In this document: positions 19,567 through 47,834 of the stretch, piece after piece | Position numbering within the stretch: the first letter of the stretch is position 1 | Layout: the number at the start of each line of letters is the position of its first letter | From: a virus | Lineage: Duplodnaviria > Caudoviricetes | IMG/VR virus record: IMGVR_UViG_3300046710_000261 | Location: 1 to 64,000 of that record | Direction: 5' to 3' (one strand) | Length of the DNA stretch: 64,000 nt | Notes under the pieces: model-generated | What the model saw: only the letters and a program-made list of their open reading frames with translations | Databases searched by the model: none | Told to the model about the DNA's origin: nothing | Program-made: the position numbers and the translations under genes

Positions 19567-21831
19567 TCATTCTCCACCTATTTTATGATTTATCTCATAA
19601 CCAGAATTTTTGAGCAATACTTCTTTCTCCGCTTCGATCAAATCATAGTCGTACATCATTCGTATCAATCCAGCAAAATCCAGTTTCGGTTTCCATCCCA
19701 ATACATTCTTTGCTTTTGATGGGTCGCCTAATAGATTATCAACCTCACTTGGCCTGAATAGTTTTGGGTCAATCCGCACATATTTCTGCCAATCCAATCC
19801 AGCATATCCATATGCCAATTCAACCAATTCCTGTATTGTGTGAAATTCACCTGATGCGATAACAAAATCATCGGGTGTATCATGCTGAAGCATAAGCCAC
19901 ATTGCCTCCACATAATCACCCGCATATCCAAAATCACGACGCGATTTCAAATTGCCCAGATATACATCATCCTGCAATCCCATTTTTATTCGGGCAGCAC
20001 TCGAAGTGACTTTCTTGGTAACAAAATTCAATCCACGGCGTGGACTGCTATTATGGACAATACCCAAACCAACACCACACATAAATTTACCACTATTGGT
20101 TTCTATATCATAAAACCATCCATCATGCTTTACCATATCAATTACTTTTTTGACTTCACTTCTATCCTGTTGAAAATGATGTCTGCCCTTGGGTATATAT
20201 CCATTTTTGACTTTACGGATAAATGTTCGCGTGATCCCTGTTTTTCGTGCCGTCTCTCTTTGACTGCACTGTTGATCAAGCATCAATTTCACTTTCGTAT
20301 ATCTTTCAGTTGCTGTTCGGGCATTCTGCCCTGTATTGCTATTGGATAGAAAATTGACAGAGTAATAGTAACTTATACCTGCACCTATATCTATATTTAT
20401 ATTATACTCCTGTTTCATCAGATTGTAAATCAAACACACCAATCCTGCAATCAAAACAGCACTACCTGACTTTACATTCTTAAATTCATATGACAGGCTA
20501 TGTCCTTTTTGTAGTCCTGCTGATTCATAATATCCATGAATAAATGCCAATTTTATTTTGCTGTTACTGTTCAAAATCTTCCATGGTATGCGTTTATATC
20601 CTTCTGTGGTATAGAAATCTTTACGCTGAAACTTTTTCCAGAAATCATCCATAGGGCTGATAGTCAAATACTTTTTCGTCTTCTCTTTTATATGTTTTTC
20701 CTTCACTTCACCCATCTGAAAATAATTGTTATATATGGTAGGGATAATTTGCCTATACTTTTCCAGCATGCGCATATCACTGTTACATAATGTAATAGTT
20801 TCATTCTCATTTATAGAGCCACAAGCAACAATAAATCCACATAACATGGCTTCATTCTCACTTACCCCTAATTCCTTCTCATATAAGACAGGATATTTAC
20901 CCAATAGTAATTTATCACCAACACCCGCGCCCATATCAATATTCATATCTTTACAGCGATTATTTAAATTAGTACGATGCCATATAATTTCCCCAGCCTT
21001 CTTCTCTCTATTATCATCCATATAGCATATATGATCATCACTCACAGAATAGACACTACCACGAGCATTTACAATCTTTACTTTCTTATCCATGTCATAA
21101 TGCATGGAAATCCCTTTTATACGTGACCAGTCATTTCCATCCCATACGGATACATTTCTATCTACAGTGTGATGTTGTGGATTATTATTATTTTGCCTAC
21201 AAGGTGAAATTAATTCCACTATATCTCGTATAGGAAGTATATCTATTATTTCAAGATTATTAATATGAAAAAATAAGGGCATTGAGGGATGAAGGCTATG
21301 GTTGAAAAGTATTCCTGAACTGGCAAATAGGTTAAATGCACGGCGATAATTTCGTGTTGTGTTATATGCAAATAATTTAGCGCATGCGTAGGGGGAGTTA
21401 GGTTCAAAGGGAGTATGCTCTGATTGAGGGGGGGAAATGGTGCCATACATTTCGCTTGATGATGCTTGATAAAAACGAGGGGCAAATTTAACCTTTCTTA
21501 TTGCTTCGAGTATGCGCAATGCGCCTATTCCTGTTATGTCACTTGTGTATTCAGGTGAATCAAATGAAATGCGCACATGAGATTGAGCTGCAAGATTATA
21601 TATTTCATCTGGATGAATGTCACTTATTAATTGTAACAGTCTAGCACTCTCACTCATATCACCAAAATGCAATATTAATTTTTCATTCTGATTTATATTA
21701 TACAGCCTCTCTAAATTAAATGTCGATGCGCGTCTTATCAGCCCATGCACTTCATATCCTTTAGACAATAATAATTCAGCAAGATAAGAACCATCTTGTC
21801 CTGTAATTCCTGTGATAAATACCTTTTTCAT
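19567..21831 (-). CDS. gmd: GDP-mannose 4,6-dehydratase interrupted by an intein
   Basis: ITGITGQDGSYLAE, LAAQSHV, QASSSE, SPYACAK, GILFNH|...|SPRRG.NFVT, RPSEVD.LLGD. Confidence 0.95.
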   Translation of the reverse strand: MKKVFITGITGQDGSYLAELLLSKGYEVHGLIRRASTFNLERLYNINQNEKLILHFGDMSESARLLQLISDIHPDEIYNLAAQSHVRISFDSPEYTSDITGIGALRILEAIRKVKFAPRFYQASSSEMYGTISPPQSEHTPFEPNSPYACAKLFAYNTTRNYRRAFNLFASSGILFNHSLHPSMPLFFHINNLEIIDILPIRDIVELISPCRQNNNNPQHHTVDRNVSVWDGNDWSRIKGISMHYDMDKKVKIVNARGSVYSVSDDHICYMDDNREKKAGEIIWHRTNLNNRCKDMNIDMGAGVGDKLLLGKYPVLYEKELGVSENEAMLCGFIVACGSINENETITLCNSDMRMLEKYRQIIPTIYNNYFQMGEVKEKHIKEKTKKYLTISPMDDFWKKFQRKDFYTTEGYKRIPWKILNSNSKIKLAFIHGYYESAGLQKGHSLSYEFKNVKSGSAVLIAGLVCLIYNLMKQEYNINIDIGAGISYYYSVNFLSNSNTGQNARTATERYTKVKLMLDQQCSQRETARKTGITRTFIRKVKNGYIPKGRHHFQQDRSEVKKVIDMVKHDGWFYDIETNSGKFMCGVGLGIVHNSSPRRGLNFVTKKVTSSAARIKMGLQDDVYLGNLKSRRDFGYAGDYVEAMWLMLQHDTPDDFVIASGEFHTIQELVELAYGYAGLDWQKYVRIDPKLFRPSEVDNLLGDPSKAKNVLGWKPKLDFAGLIRMMYDYDLIEAEKEVLLKNSGYEINHKIGGE
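20050..21297 (-). mobile_element. intein (416 aa) with degenerate LAGLIDADG endonuclease
   Basis: Starts SLHPSMPL, ends FYDIET...IVHN followed by Ser; LCGFIVACG and FIHGYYESAG blocks. Confidence 0.9.
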
Positions 21832-22061
21832 ATTTACATTACCTATTATATGTTTTTTATTTTCATTCAGATTTTCGTTCTATATATCCTGGATAACTGA
21901 TTTCCATATCATCTATAAAATAGGAAACAATATCATTATGATTTATTAAATGACTGTTAGGCGTGACCGTGACGTGATTTAAATCCTCATGTATATCAAT
22001 AATAAATCCTTCCTCAAATATATGTCTGCTTAAATGTATCCACTGATCCACATACCATCCA

Positions 22062-22280
22062 TTAAAATATAATATCTTTGTTTTCCGTTTCAATAGTGTT
22101 ATCGGGTCGAGTATTACCATTTCCGTTCTCCTTCTTTAATAGCATTGCAATATTCAGCATCCTTCTTAATATTTCATTCTTAGATGCACCTGTCTTTTGC
22201 GCCCTTAATTTAATAAACTCATCTTGGGCAGGAGTTATCAGAAACAAACATCTTACCATTTTTTGTTGACCTGTACTCAT
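22062..22280 (-). CDS. ribbon-helix-helix (CopG/Arc-like) DNA-binding protein
   Basis: VRCLFLITPAQDEFIKLRAQKTGASKNEILRRML pattern; AGGAGA SD. Confidence 0.75.
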   Translation of the reverse strand: MSTGQQKMVRCLFLITPAQDEFIKLRAQKTGASKNEILRRMLNIAMLLKKENGNGNTRPDNTIETENKDIIF

Positions 22281-22301
22281 AATCAAAATTTCTCCTATGA
22301 T

Positions 22302-22474
22302 ATACTATTATAGTATAGCACGTGATAGACTATCACCTTATATTACTATTTATAAAAACAATTCAGGAAAATGTCACACAGGGGTCAAAATGGCATTAAT
22401 TATCTTTTGTTGAAATCATTAAGGAATTTAATAATAGGGTAAAATAAAAAGTTCACACAGGGGTAAAATGCATT
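22302..22474. promoter_or_regulatory. palindromes and direct repeats upstream of RHH gene
   Basis: ATACTATtATAGTAT 22302-22316; GTGATAGaCTATCAC 22322-22336; TATAAATA on - at 22347-22354; TCACACAGGGGT(C)AAAATG(G)CATT at 22374 and 22453. Confidence 0.55.
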
Positions 22475-22481
22475 TTTTATA

Positions 22482-22510
22482 TTGACAATTGGTTTCGAGT
22501 ATGGTATAGT
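22482..22510 (+). promoter_or_regulatory. sigma70-type promoter facing the non-coding region
   Basis: TTGACA-17-TATAGT with TG extension. Confidence 0.75.
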
Positions 22511-22516
22511 ATAAGA

Positions 22517-22803
22517 GTAAGATGTAAGAAGGGGAATGAGCAGCGGCGCGTCCTCTGCATCAAAACCCCGAATGTGATGCCTCTGACATGGAAGATCAGA
22601 GGGAAATTTTATAGGGTGAAAATGGTGCATGCCCATAGGACACCCAAAAAATTAACCATATGATAAAGCCTAAGAATGGAGGACATCGTGCTGAAGTAAA
22701 AACAACTTACATTAAATTAGATTATAATAATTGACAGATTAGTTTATGATTAAAATGAAAAGCCCTTCCCTCGAAAGAGAAATTATGGAAGGGCTTTTCG
22801 CTT
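22517..22803 (+). ncRNA. candidate independently transcribed multibranch ncRNA
   Basis: Promoter, at least six nested stems, no substantial ORF, terminal hairpin. Confidence 0.6.
22757..22803. terminator. probable bidirectional intrinsic terminator
   Basis: GAAAAGCCCTTCC/GGAAGGGCTTTTC 13-bp stem with internal CTC-GAAA-GAG; lies between convergent units. Confidence 0.7.
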
Positions 22804-23334
22804 TTATAGATAAAACAATTTCCCACCTTTCACTTCAAACGGTTTTCGCTCTCCAATCTTTATAGCAGGAACCCCGCCCCATATTTCCCAGTTCGGAATA
22901 TCTTTAACTGCAACAGCACCCGCACCTAATACGGCCCCCTTACCTAAATGCACATCAATAAGCAAAACAGAATTTACTCCCATAAAAGAATAATCACCAC
23001 ATACAGATAATGATCTTTTTACATCTCGCAATTCATTGGGTGCTGCAGCACTCATAACACGACTACCCCGCTCCGTACCTGTGACTATTTTAGCACCCTG
23101 ACTCATACCAAAATAATTTCCTAAATGACATGTACCACCACCTAATACAGAACCGAATGATGGAATGTGAACATAGTCACCTATATATAAGCCAAGGCCA
23201 CCTTCTAATCTACAGAAACTATCTATGCGCACATGATCACCCAATGATATCATTTCAGGCTTTAATATTAATGCGTTATCATAGACAACACAATGATCAC
23301 CATGAAACTTAAATCTATTCATATCATATTCCAT
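22804..23334 (-). CDS. hexapeptide-repeat (LbH) sugar acetyltransferase
   Basis: LGDHVRID, IGDYVHI, LGKGAVLGAGAV..KDIP..WGGVPA. Confidence 0.9.
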   Translation of the reverse strand: MEYDMNRFKFHGDHCVVYDNALILKPEMISLGDHVRIDSFCRLEGGLGLYIGDYVHIPSFGSVLGGGTCHLGNYFGMSQGAKIVTGTERGSRVMSAAAPNELRDVKRSLSVCGDYSFMGVNSVLLIDVHLGKGAVLGAGAVAVKDIPNWEIWGGVPAIKIGERKPFEVKGGKLFYL

Positions 23335-23350
23335 TTTGTTATTCTCCTAT

Positions 23351-23542
23351 CTATAATTTAAACTCATTCATATCAATGCTGAAATTCATATACTCTGCAC
23401 ATACTATGTCCATATGTTTAACAGGACATGCGAATGGATAATCCCCCATTCTATTATCAGGGTGTCTATGTGGCTTTGCGCATATGCATGCATCCCTATA
23501 TCCACATTCAATATAATCACCACAGATAAATAATTTATTCAT
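23351..23542 (-). CDS. Cys/His microprotein with tag (type A)
   Basis: LFIC..PHRH; ends FSIDMNEFKL. Confidence 0.7.
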   Translation of the reverse strand: MNKLFICGDYIECGYRDACICAKPHRHPDNRMGDYPFACPVKHMDIVCAEYMNFSIDMNEFKL

Positions 23543-24473
23543 TGCTTACCCCACATTGTAGTATACTATAATTGTATATAATTTATTATCATTGTATGTT
23601 ATGCATAATTATGTATAATTATATGATTCGTTCTTTGTAATGCAATGCTTTATTATTCATCCCGTTTACCCCATATATATAAGGTAGGCAACTCAAACAT
23701 ATACATATATGGGGTAAGGGGAGGGGATATAGGGGTACTGTCCAGCAGCCCGTCTCATAATGGCCTTGTGCTGTATATAAAACCTTGCCGACACCCCTAT
23801 AAGCATGCTTAAATTCCCCCTGTCTCTTATGACCACTATAGTGCACCGATTGACTGGCATAATGCTTTCCACAACACTGCTTTCCACACACTTCTTTTCA
23901 TATACCAAAACTTATGCCCGTTTTCGCATTCTACATATTGGAATTTCTTATCTCCGTATATGTATAAATCTCTTTCTGTGTATAATTCTTTTGCTTTTAC
24001 TCTTATCTTACACTCGTGACAATATAATTTCATTGTACCACCCCTATATTATAAAATTTTTTCCCCCAATTTTTATTTAACCACCAGAACTTTTATGGTT
24101 CTAAGATCTAATTTTTTAATCGCTCTCTTTATTGTCCTGTATTTAAATCTCCCCTTCACCTGACTAGAGGTAAAGGCATCCTTCCAGGCAATTACATAAT
24201 ACCATCCCCGACAATAATCTACATCCAATACAATTTTCATTATGACACCCCTTTTATTCTGTTACCGCCTGTTGTATCACAGTTATCTTCCCTATTCTAT
24301 GGGGTGGATAATACATTCCCGCGATATAGAATCCTTTTGTTCCGATGTTTATGCATTCTTTTTTGGCAATCTCTTCATCATAACAAGTCCATGTCCCCAA
24401 TTCATCTTCATTATTATCATAGATTCTCAATACTAATTTCCATCCTGATTCAAGTTTCATTTTTATGACCCTC

Positions 24474-32305: not shown

Positions 32306-32380
32306 TGGAGCATCCAACGGGAATTGAACCCATATCTTATCCTTACCAAAGATAAATTCTGCCGATTGAACTATGGATGC
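32306..32380 (-). tRNA. tRNA-Thr(GGT)
   Basis: Acceptor GCATCCA/TGGATGC, anticodon arm TATCT-TTGGTAA-GGATA, T-arm ATGGG-TTCAATT-CCCGT, encoded CCA. Confidence 0.9.
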
Positions 32381-36577: not shown

Positions 36578-38027
36578 TCGTCTTCCTCTTCCTCTTCATT
36601 CTTACCAAAATATTCTTCCAGTTCCTTGTCAATTTCGGTGGTGGGTTTCCAATTCAGAATTTTTCCTGTGTCCAAGTCAATATCCAATTCAACATCATCC
36701 CCCCCGCCGAGGAATTTAGGAACATATCCATCATATTCTCTATTATCCAATGACATAAAAAAACAATCAGAACAATGCGCTTGAATTTTCAATACTCTCA
36801 TTTATTTTCCTTTTCCTGCTCTTCTTTTTTCGTACATCCTTCATCTGGCTTTGGAAGATATGGTGAGCAGCCACATTCAGGGCATTCACCATCATTATCT
36901 GTAGTTCCTTCCCATCCACAATGACATGTAATTGGAAATTTAAGATGTGGAGCCATTTATTTCTTTTCCCTCTCCATCTCTTCCGCTGCCGTGCTATACC
37001 ATTTATCAAAACAGGCCATGCACATCAGCACTTTTATTTTTGTGTTGCCGATGAACCTTATTCTTGACTGTCCCAGCCCTTTGCCTTTTTCATAATTCCC
37101 TGTAACGGGATTTTTTCCCCATTGTCTCTGTTCTTCAATCATCGTTTTTGTAATGTAGATAGCGGGGCCGTCTTTTATGCTTATCCCGCAATGGATACAC
37201 TCATTTTTTGTTATAGTCCAGAAACCCATTTTTATTCCTCCCTTCTTACTTCATCATGGCCAATTTCAAAAACCTTTTCGCAGAAGAAACAAATATAAAA
37301 TGCTGGCATTCGTAACCTACTTGCCCAATGGGTCAATAAATGAACAAGCTTGCTGCAATTTTTACATAATGATTTTTCTGTTTTCTGTATTACATAATTG
37401 GAGTTCATTTATCTGTTGCTCCCTCCCATATAGTTTTGCCATACAGTTTTATTTTCCATATCCATGTTATGGACACAAGACAGGCAATAAAAATCTTTTT
37501 TCTCATCCCAAACAAAAGCGTCCAGAATATCGCCGATGGGAATTGTTTCGCCGCAACCAGAGCATTTATGTTCCTCTTTGCTGTAACAAATTGTGTCGGA
37601 AATCATTTTTTCCTCTTTTCTTTTACCCAATTTTCAAAGTCTTCAATTCTTTCATCATCTTCTTGAAAATATTCCAACACCATATCCAAAAATTCTGTGG
37701 TTTCGGCATCGGCTTCCTTTTTCCAATCATCCTCTCTACCGTAACTCATTTTTTCCCCTTTCTCAATCTCTATATGGGTCAAGTCTTTTTGCAATCCAAA
37801 AAGCATCCTTTGGGTTTGCCTTCAATTTGAGGGTTTCGGATTCGCCGAAACAGCTTATTTTGATTTCACCCAATTTCTCTTCACCAACAGCCACTTGAAA
37901 AAATCCTGCTGAAGTTGGAGCAAATCCCGCATGACCAATTCCTCTCGCCACATCCTTGTGAGAAAGAACGGGGTCAAAGATAACAGCATTGGTTTCGTTG
38001 AACATAACATACTTCATAAACTCCATT

Positions 38028-41010: not shown

Positions 41011-42321
41011 CTAAAAATAAAGTCTCGCTCTCAATCCGTAAATATCAATCGGTCCCCGCGCGTGGTTACTGGTGGGGTTGACGATGCGCTGGTAGTCGGG
41101 TGTCAGTTGAAAATATTTTCCCATCTGTATTCGATAATATGTCTCATAAACCATTTCATAAAGAGGGTCAAGTCTTCCATCACCAATCAGCATTCCGATC
41201 CCGCCTTTGTCAAGGTATTCTCTATGAATGTCTGAAATTCCATTGACGGCATAAGCGAAACCAAAATAGTCTTTGGGTCTGTTCCAATGAATACCATTAA
41301 GTTGAAATCCCATACTGAAATGTCTATCAACTTCAGCATATGACCATGTTGAAACCTGGCCTTTCTGCCAACCCAATCGCATGAAGGCACCCGTTTCGCC
41401 CTTATCTGCTAACTGTTGCTCAAAGTTTACTGTTGCTCCATAGGTGCTTCTTCCAGGCTGTTCATTCGCGTGAATACTTGGAATTGTATTGGTAGCAGAG
41501 GCGATATTCATTGCATCCTGATACGTTCCCATCCTTCCCTGATTATGATAGAACAAAACCTTTACGGTTCCTGTTTTATATGGTTTGTAGCCGATCTCAA
41601 GATTGTCTCCCCGCGCTCTGTAAACATCAGTGTCCATATTGTAGCCATTGGCAGTTGTCGGTTCCATAAAACTGCCGAAAACTATTCTCCACTTTTCCAG
41701 AACATAGGCAATAGAAACCCCATAACTATATCCCCTTGTGTCAGAAGCATAATCCCATGCGGGGTTGAAAATAAAAGAGTAATTCAGAAATTGGGTTTTC
41801 GTGTTATTTGCGTATCTATTCCAATCCATATCATCGGTCGCTGCAAATTTTCCGAATTTTATATCAACCCTTTCTTTTGCTTCGCGGCCCGGGAGTTGGC
41901 CAATTCCCCTTTCGACTTTTATTGTTTCATTTGATAGAGGAATTGAATATCGTAAATATAATCTGGCAACATAGGGGTCGTCACTAAGTCCTGCCTGTCC
42001 TGCCCTGATAACATCACCATTGGAATACCCACCCAAACCATATCCGTTGCTTACACCCGCTCCCCGAAACATTTCAACGTCCCAATAAGCCTGTAGGTTC
42101 TTTGTTACTTGACTGCCAAGATAAAGGCCATAGGTGTGAGTTATTTTTTGGTCAGGAACAAAACTCTTCTCTCCCTGATATGGATTTTTGAATGAGGGAA
42201 CAGACTGGTATATTCCCGTTGCCTGTGCACCCAAAAGTTGTGGTGTCCAGTCTGGTTTCTTTTCCTCTCCATAAACGGAGATAGGAAATAATATCAGCAG
42301 AAGAAATAATATTTTAGGCAT
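41011..42321 (-). CDS. OprB-family (carbohydrate/Mn-type) outer-membrane porin
   Basis: Signal peptide MPKILFLLLILFPISVYG, amphipathic strands, AWDYASDTRGYSYG, YETYY..LTPDYQ.I.NP, C-terminal Phe. Confidence 0.85.
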   Translation of the reverse strand: MPKILFLLLILFPISVYGEEKKPDWTPQLLGAQATGIYQSVPSFKNPYQGEKSFVPDQKITHTYGLYLGSQVTKNLQAYWDVEMFRGAGVSNGYGLGGYSNGDVIRAGQAGLSDDPYVARLYLRYSIPLSNETIKVERGIGQLPGREAKERVDIKFGKFAATDDMDWNRYANNTKTQFLNYSFIFNPAWDYASDTRGYSYGVSIAYVLEKWRIVFGSFMEPTTANGYNMDTDVYRARGDNLEIGYKPYKTGTVKVLFYHNQGRMGTYQDAMNIASATNTIPSIHANEQPGRSTYGATVNFEQQLADKGETGAFMRLGWQKGQVSTWSYAEVDRHFSMGFQLNGIHWNRPKDYFGFAYAVNGISDIHREYLDKGGIGMLIGDGRLDPLYEMVYETYYRIQMGKYFQLTPDYQRIVNPTSNHARGPIDIYGLRARLYF

Positions 42322-45001
42322 TGCCTTGTGGTATAACATTTTCCATAAATTCCTTTTCAAAGTTTTCATTGAAACATCTTTGTTTATAAAACAGTTGGAG
42401 CAAATAGTCAAATTGCAATTCTGTAACCATCTTGCCCTGATTTTTGTCAAGCAAAATACCTTGAAGGGTAAGAATAGTCTTCATAGCAATGAGATTATTC
42501 TCTTTGGCAGCAGCCCTCAATGCATCTCCAAGTTTCTTAAACAGGTCTGTTTCTGTTATCGGATTTTCTGCTTTCGGTTTTTCTTTCTTCTCTAAGGATT
42601 TCCGAAAGATTTTGGTAATTTTGGACAACAGCGTTTCTACAATCATCATATCCTATTCTCCATCCTAATTTAAATGCTCTCACAACAACCAAAATTATGA
42701 TCAAAAAATCAATCATATATGTTGTCATGAGAATGTTAAATGCTAAATGCTTTTGAGCATCAGGCAATTGATCTTTCAAAAAGAAATAAATGAGCAACGG
42801 TATTCCAATTATTAGTAATACCGAAATAATTTTCAATATTGTCAATATTGTCTTTATCATTTCCCCGCTTCCCATCTGTCAATGGTTCCTGAAATTCCCA
42901 TCTCGAATTTTTCAATTCCGATATAAGGAATTACACCACCGACATATTCATTGTCAGAAGTGTGGACATATGGCCGATAGAGGGTGACAAAGGTGGCATT
43001 TTTGTTTATTACAGTTGCCACACTATATGCCGCAATTCCAGTAATACGAACAACATCCTTTACTTGTAAATCCTTGACATCAACCTTTAACCACATCGTT
43101 TTTTCTCCCTTCTTATCGAAGATATTTTACAGGGGTAAGAATAAACCCCAATCTGTGTAGAGTGACAATAATCCCGATGGCAAACATGAAAAAACAAATC
43201 ATTTTTATGACAGTATTAAACCATCCCCTTTTGCTCAAAATAATGGTGAGAAATCCAAAGATGAGCACCGAAATCCCGATAAAATAATTTGTCAACGTTT
43301 CCATTTTTACCACCTTATCTGTTTCAGCCTGAAGGCTTTTGTTAGCATATATCTGATTCGATGATTTTCATCATCAACACAACCATGCTCGAAAATTTTG
43401 CCATCGACACCCCACTTTTTTCGGAGATAGATGCCCTCTTCTAATTCCACAATGGCATCAGATTGTAGGGGGCCGAATAGGGGCGCATCTTTTTCCTCTT
43501 TGATGAGAATTTTTTTGATTTGGTTTTTAGTCATTTTATTCCTTTACGATTTTTATCAATCTAAAAAATTCAATCAGTTTATCTATGGCCCTACAATACA
43601 TTCGTCCCTGATATTTCATCAACTTTCCGTTTTTGTAAATACGTTGAAAGTTATATGTCATTCTTTCTTCAAGTTTCACTTTAAGAGGGACTAATCCTTC
43701 CTCAATTTTTGTTACTATGTAATACCCCTTTTTAAATTGGGGGACACCAGGACTTTTCAAAAAATCAGTCGTATTGTATATGATAGAACCTTCTTTTAAT
43801 CTGAACATTTTACTTTCCGAATTTTCTACCCTTTAGGGTGTAATACATTGATCTTGACAGATCGGTAAAATTCCACGTTTTGCAGGTCACTTCATAACCT
43901 TGTTTCCGTAAATCCCGCGCTCTGCGATTGCGAATTTTCATCGCATCGGGGCCATACTTCGTATCGGAATATCCTTCTTCGATGTACTTCATTATTTCCC
44001 TTCTCCCTTCAAAACGTCAAGAGCCTTTGTTCCCGTCAGCCAATTAAATTCTTTGCGCATCCAATAATTTTTGATCAGTTCCATCGCCTCTTTGACTGTC
44101 GGATATGGGTCTCTCTCTTTCGGTAGAGGCCCATATTTGATATTTCGGGCAAGGTTGAGAGCATCCTTGGCGGTGTATTCCATTATTTTATTCTCCGGGC
44201 ATTCCGCTTGATCTCTGCCACATAAACATCACCCATTTCACCATCAGGGCAAATCGGAGTGACTACATCACAAAACCACCGAGCATACTCATTTTTCGCC
44301 TCTGCCTCTGGCGATTGATATTTCTTCAAAACATTCCAAGTCCAAGAATCACCAAAAGACTGCCATACTTCATATGGTTCATTTCTCTTTCGGGTTTTCG
44401 CACATTCGTTTTTCGCCATTTTATTTCCTTTCTTATAAAATCTGTTGTTTCAGATTTTCGGTGAAAAGTGATCTGATAGCATACAATTCACCATCCCCAT
44501 CATGAGAAACATCATTGATCAATGAATGCAATTCAGAAATTTCTCTATTCCAATGATCAATGATAAACTTTAAATCTGGAAGTCTTTTCTCCAGCATATT
44601 CGCGGTTGCTTCGCCCTTCAACCATCCAGCATTATGCTCACGGATGAATTTCATGTCAACTCGCTTTTCGGGGTTTCGGGAAACGTAACCAAGGAATAAA
44701 TCAACCTTGTTGTCATAAGGAATATCTTTTCCCCAAACCGAAAGATGAAGCATTCCATAACGATCTTCGAAATAAACGATATACCCGTCTTTCTCTCCCG
44801 CATTTATCATGATCTTGATAACATCGGTAATTCTCTTTCCTAATTTCTTCCCCTCTTTTTGCTCAAGAATTTCAAACAGGGCAGAAACAATTCGATGATT
44901 TCTCCGTAAACGGATGAGTTCATCCTTGATCTTTTGAGTGACTACCTTGAAATCCAATTTGATTTGATCCATTTTTTTTCCTTCCCTTATTTTCTGATTA
45001 T

Positions 45002-47773: not shown

Positions 47774-47834
47774 ATTATAACAATTTTGAAGGGTTTTGTC
47801 AAGAAAAATCTTTCAGAATGAAATCAAGGGGTTT
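47774..47834 (-). promoter_or_regulatory. early promoter with IHF-like site
   Basis: TTGACA-17-TATAAT; AATCAAGGGGTTT upstream. Confidence 0.8.

Follow-up and report, generated by a model that had tools for sequence, protein, structure and literature searches.

A selectively constrained, structured small RNA candidate with an exchangeable hairpin beside a regulator cassette in a large phage genome

Introduction

Only a few stand-alone structured RNAs are known from large lytic phages, and most of them await characterisation. The locus described here raises the question of whether a 517-nt intergenic gap in a phage genome holds such an RNA, a set of minute coupled genes, a cis-acting sensor, a replication-origin primer, or nothing of dedicated function. 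It lies in the first 64 kb (hereafter, the window) of a 155,948-bp IMG/VR virus record with an estimated completeness of ~70%. An initial annotation, drawn up from the letters of the window, had described a ~290-nt multibranch RNA on the + strand and had offered a novel phage ncRNA or an origin-priming transcript as its identity. The unit has clean boundaries, measurable constraint, and a location in a hotspot of regulator exchange, and a natural allele with a swapped hairpin indicates which part of the RNA is dispensable or specificity-bearing. If its product is an RNA effector, a new family is added to phage riboregulation; if the micro-ORFs within it are real, it provides a compact case of coupled translation yielding phage peptides of <30 residues.

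Results

Genomic setting of the unit

The phage encodes a T4-type RNase H, a DnaB-like helicase, a ribonucleotide reductase, RtcB, a CCA-adding enzyme, and sugar-modification genes, and it looks lytic and T4-like. The - strand holds nearly all genes between ~7.4 kb and 95 kb, and the gap with the candidate small RNA unit is bounded on one side by the stop codon of a gene for a 176-aa hexapeptide acyltransferase (22804-23334, -) and on the other by the start of the gene for a 65-aa ribbon-helix-helix-like protein. The latter gene comes first in an operon that further comprises an 85-aa gene and a gene for a GDP-mannose dehydratase (Gmd) with an apparent intein. The unit is convergent with the acyltransferase operon, which includes a 63-aa gene, and Gmd and the acyltransferase constitute its nucleotide-sugar neighbors. 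The statement that it is the only + strand unit after 7.8 kb was too strong: a free-standing 217-aa ORF at 37177-37830 (+), for which we found no Pfam match, stands amid - strand genes and is likely a second + strand unit within the - strand block.

In the adjacent operon, the gene for the GDP-mannose 4,6-dehydratase (19567-21831, -) is interrupted by an insert of ~416 aa, with Pfam GDP_Man_Dehyd matches in two stretches and an HTH_28 match at residues 514-549; the insert looks like an intein, and a second strain (L091) has the same 754-aa form of the protein. Elsewhere in the window, 41011-42450 (-) encodes a homolog of the OprB family of carbohydrate-selective porins (Pfam E 8e-32), for which a pattern-based search found no close relative in GTDB genomes and gave no host identification.

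Transcription signals

The strong promoter claimed by the initial annotation is present as a near-consensus extended -10 promoter at 22482-22510, with 11/12 consensus matches in addition to the TG (Table 1). The phage has some 30 strong early promoters of the same design (TTGACA, 14 nt, TGn, TATAAT), and almost all are oriented with their genes. In the whole record, the -35 elements of such promoters start, for example, at 47802, 45885, and 92325 (-) and at 127893 and 132824 (+); many have gaaagatttttc upstream and a leader of the form agaaagtgagg...ATG downstream, and a similar promoter sequence is present in the closest related viral record.

At its other end, the unit shares with the convergent acyltransferase operon a two-way terminator whose GC-rich 13-bp stem closes both, with a U-rich tail on the + strand and an A-tract that supplies the U tail on the - strand. 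The terminal hairpin with a GAAA tetraloop that had been noted is this element (22757-22799), the GAAA capping its inner mini-hairpin. The unit is indeed GC-rich relative to its flanks (local GC 0.39-0.47 as against ~0.27) and devoid of any sizeable ORF, as all + strand ORFs before the terminator are of <=29 aa; beyond the folded domain, the sequence turns AT-rich (22700-22756). Purines make up 0.60 of the + strand of the unit, matching gene sense strands (0.573 +/- 0.037). With its own promoter, no ORF of notable length, and a Rho-independent terminator ending in a U tail, the unit displays the architecture of Hfq-type small RNAs. The signals for the independent transcription described earlier are present, and the transcription itself is predicted from them.

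Table 1. Features of the candidate small RNA unit and its upstream cassette, with positions in the window
Feature	Position	Strand	Remarks
Divergent 65-aa ribbon-helix-helix-like regulator gene	22062-22259	-	Sub-threshold RHH_1 and SeqA_N matches
Direct repeat 1, 22 bp, CACACAGGGGT	22368-22389	.	Repeat search; putative site of the adjacent ribbon-helix-helix regulator
Direct repeat 2	22447-22468	.	79 bp from repeat 1; end lies 13 bp upstream of the -35 hexamer
Early sigma-70-type promoter	22482-22510	+	TTGACA, 17-nt spacer with TG, TATAGT; 11/12 consensus matches
Predicted transcript, ~283 nt	22517-22800	+	Both ends inferred from promoter and terminator positions
P1, 5' strand	22521-22528	+	Partner 22706-22713; unchanged between alleles
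P2, GGGG	22531-22534	+	Partner CCCC 22566-22569; flanks the exchanged segment, kept in both alleles
P2 tip, exchangeable GC-rich hairpin	22537-22565	+	29 nt here, unrelated 24 nt in L056
P3 (22576-22584 / 22678-22687), enclosing P4	22576-22687	+	Both alleles 100% identical
P4, long irregular arm	22590-22625 / 22633-22670	+	Apical loop UGCAUGC with palindrome GCAUGC
P1, 3' strand	22706-22713	+	Partner 22521-22528
AU-rich linker with weak A-U hairpin (22720-22732 / 22737-22751)	22714-22756	+	43 nt; both alleles identical
Two-way intrinsic terminator	22757-22807	both	13-bp stem 22757-22769 / 22787-22799, inner CUC-GAAA-GAG mini-hairpin

Predicted fold

The whole unit folds with a free energy of -82.6 kcal/mol (z -5.4 vs shuffles), and its 199-nt core without the terminator with -53.7 kcal/mol (z -3.8; 0/200 shuffles as stable). 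Among 133 random 200-nt windows from the genome (mean z -0.37, sd 1.17) a single one attains z <= -3.8, which places the core in the top ~1% by this measure; yet by a cruder regression of free energy against composition it is 144th of 3116 windows, in the top ~5% only. The core fold is therefore unusual but not unique.

The nested multibranch structure drawn by the initial annotation survives in part. Its closing ATGTAAG/CTTACAT stem corresponds to the P1 helix, with a pair probability of >=0.98, and the GGGTG/CACCC stem around ATGG/CCAT has pair probabilities of 0.85-0.99. The other four stems (CAGC/GCTG, GTCCTC/GAGGAC, GCATCA/TGATGC, and CTCTGA/TCAGAG) have ensemble probabilities of <0.05 in the window allele, and the GGGG/CCCC pairing proposed as a pseudoknot is instead nested, forming a helix whose tip is exchangeable. 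The first three of these stems are also refuted as conserved features by the second allele described below, because it lacks their 5' halves while their 3' partners are unchanged.

A second allele with an exchanged hairpin

One divergent allele of the locus was recovered via a 90%-cluster variant of the acyltransferase, in the contigs L056 and L057 (Logan runs SRR22891766/65); L091 carries the same allele as L056, and three further contigs (L053-L055) carry a locus identical to that of the window. To the right of the unit, the two strains differ at 11 positions in 22815-23602 (1.4%), with a synonymous divergence of 0.034-0.095, and to its left, Gmd has a pS of 0.083, such that the synonymous divergence of the neighboring genes amounts to 3-9%. 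The 85-aa orphan gene (21863-22120, -) stands out from its neighbors (pN 0.005-0.011) with 74% protein identity between the strains, pN 0.17, and pS 0.27. Such divergence would mark either a mosaic block or fast evolution, and the pS together with the low protein identity suggests that the left block derives from a more distant lineage.

Against this background, both promoter hexamers are preserved in L056, with TATAGT becoming the consensus TATAAT, and changes affect 5/17 spacer bases and 1 base just 5' of the -35 hexamer. The 5' end of the unit (22510-22536) is identical at 27/27 positions, though it lies in the block whose 85-aa gene has a pS of 0.27. The 29 nt between GGGG and CCCC (22537-22565) are then swapped for an unrelated, again hairpin-forming segment of 24 nt, and the 249 nt that follow (22566-22814) show 0 changes in this comparison of just two alleles. 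At the synonymous rate of the neighboring genes, 8-12 changes would be expected in a neutral stretch of this length (Poisson probability <=1e-4), and hence the unit appears to be under constraint comparable to that on nonsynonymous sites; a recent recombination tract could account for part of the 249-nt identity.

Both alleles fold into one architecture, comprising P1, P2, P3, P4, the linker hairpin, and the terminator. The exchanged segments both fold into GC-rich hairpins, stabler than ~94-95% of their own shuffles (shuffle fractions 0.06 and 0.05). With respect to covariation, RNAalifold finds 0 compensatory double changes in the aligned pairs of the two alleles available: the exchange of the tip is a hairpin-for-hairpin replacement and not base-pair covariation. 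The tip loop is palindromic in both alleles, reading CGCG in one and AUAU in the second, and the GCAUGC loop of P4 is invariant. An inversion of the tip hairpin between the alleles was considered and found not significant, the alignment score lying at the 95th percentile of shuffles. Complementarities of 6 nt between each variable segment and the conserved body are, by our estimate, to be expected by chance. In L091 (Logan SRR22891767), the contig end falls in the invariant 5' end of the RNA, a few bases before the variable hairpin; it could represent an assembly-graph branch, i.e., further hairpin alleles in the sample.

The upstream regulator cassette

All sequence upstream of the -35 hexamer in the second allele is non-homologous to that of the window. 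This corresponds to a cassette swap (window 22062-22474 vs L056:1080-1588) with the flanking genes unmoved, in which a gene for a 110/122-aa zinc-ribbon and coiled-coil protein replaces the ribbon-helix-helix gene. The repeat CACACAGGGGT has 2 occurrences only within the 64 kb; both 22-bp copies are absent from L056, which has two unrelated 23-bp direct repeats, 56 bp apart. Neither the ribbon-helix-helix protein nor the 85-aa protein has relatives among 5.8 billion proteins beyond the two strains of this phage. Pairing of the tip hairpin with the regulator mRNA of its own allele was rejected (z -0.06 and +0.16).

Searches for families and homologs

At gathering thresholds, the sole Rfam 15 match in the 64 kb is a tRNA at 32309-32380. 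With the cutoff relaxed to E <= 10, the region 22250-22900 gives a best score of 20 bits, as against thresholds of 47-114, and the matches fall only on the terminator hairpin and the AT-rich flanks. ARAGORN found no tmRNA. The judgment that the unit cannot be assigned to tmRNA, RNase P, SRP, or 6S is thus in agreement with the Rfam scan, in which it matches no family; Y RNA, pRNA, c4, wcaG, manA, riboswitch, and ribozyme models of Rfam 15 likewise give no match to it. The unit, which matches no known RNA family, is probably a new phage small RNA.

BLAST searches with the locus recovered no match among 50,697 GenBank phages and only promoter-like 15-25-mers in five related viral records. Neither the covariance model of the structure in the earlier note (R1), run on 19 related viral records, nor that of the corrected one (R2), run on 25 records related through the helicase, recovered anything there or in the phage's own genome. 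Among pattern searches, a 22-mer had 0 matches in IMG/VR; an 18-mer from the invariant 5' end had 2 viral and 28 metagenome matches, all attributable to chance by model search; and a pattern bridging the variable hairpin had 0 matches in JGI metagenomes, GTDB genomes, and IMG/VR. Relatives of the acyltransferase were also considered as a route to homologs: two of them (L002 and L058) are not syntenic, and a third, 59% identical and on a syntenic ENA contig (P0004; ERZ27256607), has a 390-nt gap without a called gene at the same place. No IMG/VR relative of P0004 was found.

Several known types of RNA were considered individually. A retron msr-msd RNA finds no RVT_1 match in the 156-kb record (~70% complete), and a bacterial Y RNA/Ro module finds neither a TROVE (Rsr) protein match nor a Y-RNA model match. 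A CsrA-type sponge is unlikely, with 7 GGA motifs by our own count vs ~6 expected from composition. The longest complementarities of the unit to the phage genome are 13-15 nt, about chance level, 13-mers being expected by chance.

Discussion

A proposed structured RNA acting in trans

The unit is real, selectively maintained, and independently signalled. We put at about an even chance the reading that it is a lineage-specific, early structured small RNA that acts as an RNA in trans, with its output set by the adjacent regulator. The host sigma-70 RNA polymerase would start near 22517 and halt at the two-way terminator (22757-22799), releasing a transcript of ~283 nt. Its first ~190 nt are predicted to form a three-way junction of the 8-bp closing helix P1, P2, and the long irregular P3-P4 arm, in which the GGGG/CCCC helix of P2 would carry a GC-rich cap hairpin of freely exchangeable sequence. 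The 43-nt AU-rich linker, terminator hairpin, and U tail would then make up the kind of 3' module that stable bacterial small RNAs typically have. We propose that such an RNA might act in trans, either as a riboregulator through base pairing or as a scaffold for proteins, and that the divergently encoded DNA-binding protein might set its output via the direct-repeat pair upstream of the -35 element.

A novel phage ncRNA, one of the two identities suggested at the outset, is preferred on account of the conserved promoter and terminator, the stable fold, the purifying selection, the structure-preserving exchange of the hairpin, and the want of an Rfam match; it falls short of proof because the two alleles offer no covariation, the transcript is a predicted one, and three coupled micro-ORFs stand as a rival. 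In a more elaborate version, which we regard as improbable, the P2 hairpin would determine specificity and be swapped in one cassette with the DNA-binding regulator and its operators, so that this large lytic phage would have an 'identity' module of RNA plus repressor. Such a module might serve strain-specific exclusion, self-recognition, or dimerisation via the palindromic loops.

Alternative explanations

The transcript might instead be an early mRNA for coupled frames of 13, 28, and 24 codons, with the fold merely tuning translation or stability, a reading that we deem unlikely but the main rival. The first frame, of 13 codons from 22536 onward (7 codons in the second allele), terminates at a UGAUG, which would pass ribosomes to the 28-codon frame (22577-22663), whose stop in turn overlaps (AUGA) the start of the 24-codon frame (22660-22734). 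The 5' end of the predicted transcript resembles an ordinary early mRNA leader, a point against the RNA reading, in that a purine-rich Shine-Dalgarno stretch is followed by an ATG ~25 nt after the -10 element, as in phage early leaders. In both alleles, the shared TGA is preceded by an in-frame ATG (shuffle fractions 0.13 and 0.09, joint ~0.012), with AAGAGG 5 nt before the ATG in the other allele; in the window allele, however, GGGG stands 1 nt from the ATG, and the starts of the 28- and 24-codon frames lack a preceding Shine-Dalgarno stretch. By codon model, the 24-codon frame scores 0.29, above the 95th percentile of spurious ORFs (0.12), but the 28-codon frame, at 0.03, lies between the real and spurious distributions, and its ATG, buried in P3, has an unpaired probability of 0.02; start-codon accessibility as such is not a discriminating measure. 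The micro-frames have no paralogs in the genome, and the gene callers place no gene here on any contig. An mRNA for microproteins would also leave unexplained the long-range P1 helix, the top-1% fold stability, and the invariance of the AU-rich 22735-22756 downstream of the last frame.

That the locus has no dedicated function, being a stray early promoter that faces a shared terminator across fortuitously stable intergenic sequence or the remnant of a decayed gene, is improbable. We found no homolog outside this phage species, the three frames can be read as a former ~65-codon gene split by two frameshifts, and the regression measure of stability is the less exceptional one; this is to be set against the unchanged 249 nt and 27-nt 5' end, the retention of the promoter hexamers despite spacer changes, and the fold z. 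The convergence of the unit upon the acyltransferase operon, the terminator used by both, and the nucleotide-sugar neighbors would also suit a cis-acting sensor or antisense unit, in which the 5' domain controls read-through of the terminator and thereby antisense transcription into the 63-aa and acyltransferase operon, as an orphan riboswitch-like or collision-type regulator. As read from the sequence, the 5' GAAGGG could compete with the 3' strand of the terminator for CCCUUC, but the terminator is very stable, stands 43 nt beyond P1, and has no evident anti-terminator overlap. A riboswitch or cis leader was in fact rejected, for what lies downstream is the 3' end of the convergent gene rather than a co-oriented gene, and known aptamers, among them the wcaG and manA motifs of sugar-gene clusters, give no match; we see slight probability in a cis-acting sensor. 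Least probable is the second suggested identity, a primer for a replication origin like oriF/oriG of T4, whose transcript would form an R-loop in the downstream AT-rich stretch and for which the upstream direct repeats would serve as iterons. The T4-like replication genes, the AT-rich sequence behind the folded domain, and the paired repeats are compatible with this, but there are only two repeats, and their replacement along with the regulator gene between the alleles is what would be expected of operators; moreover, the whole 249 nt are invariant and not just the promoter-proximal segment. The cumulative GC-skew has its extremes where the strand switches, at 7.8 kb and 92.6 kb, and none at 22.5 kb; this is a weak test, as transcription dominates the skew, and it lends the suggestion no support. 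T4 origins are not known to feature a strong terminator or a conserved folded domain, both of which are present in the unit.

Comparison with known systems

As a putative structured RNA acting in trans, the unit is comparable to stand-alone small RNAs of bacteria and phages in having its own sigma-70 promoter, no long ORF, and a stable 5' structure. The AU-rich linker beside a strong terminator with a U tail resembles the 3' module of Hfq-type small RNAs, and its size is within their range of 100-400 nt; unlike in those RNAs, the 5' end is fully taken up in helices with no free seed, and complementarity to phage targets is not above chance. A small RNA gene beside a ribbon-helix-helix-type repressor gene is likewise found in P22 immI (arc/mnt and sar RNA) and with the P1/P7 c4 antisense RNA (RF01695), and the exchange of an allele-specific RNA segment together with the regulator is reminiscent of the heteroimmune loops of P1/P7. 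In contrast to these immunity RNAs, ours has no c4 Rfam match and is antisense to no gene, its tip hairpin is not complementary to its own regulator mRNA, and the phage looks lytic and T4-like.

The phi29 pRNA (RF00044) is also an early phage RNA built on a three-way junction, and the self-complementary apical loop here (GCAUGC in UGCAUGC) could in principle pair between molecules; with no model match and an unrelated type of phage, the likeness is architectural only. Finally, the wcaG and manA motifs (RF01761, RF01745) are structured RNAs of phage and marine sugar-nucleotide gene clusters, and Gmd and the acyltransferase flank this RNA, but it differs from them in giving no match at E <= 10, in lying on the strand opposite to the sugar genes, and in ending at its own terminator rather than forming a 5' leader.

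Another ~290-nt stretch without a convincing ORF, rich in GGGG/CCCC runs, lies close by at 23543-23835 (-), between a 65-aa zinc-ribbon gene and the 63-aa Cys-rich gene. Its shuffle z is only -0.49, yet it ranks 7th and 11th in a composition-corrected fold scan.
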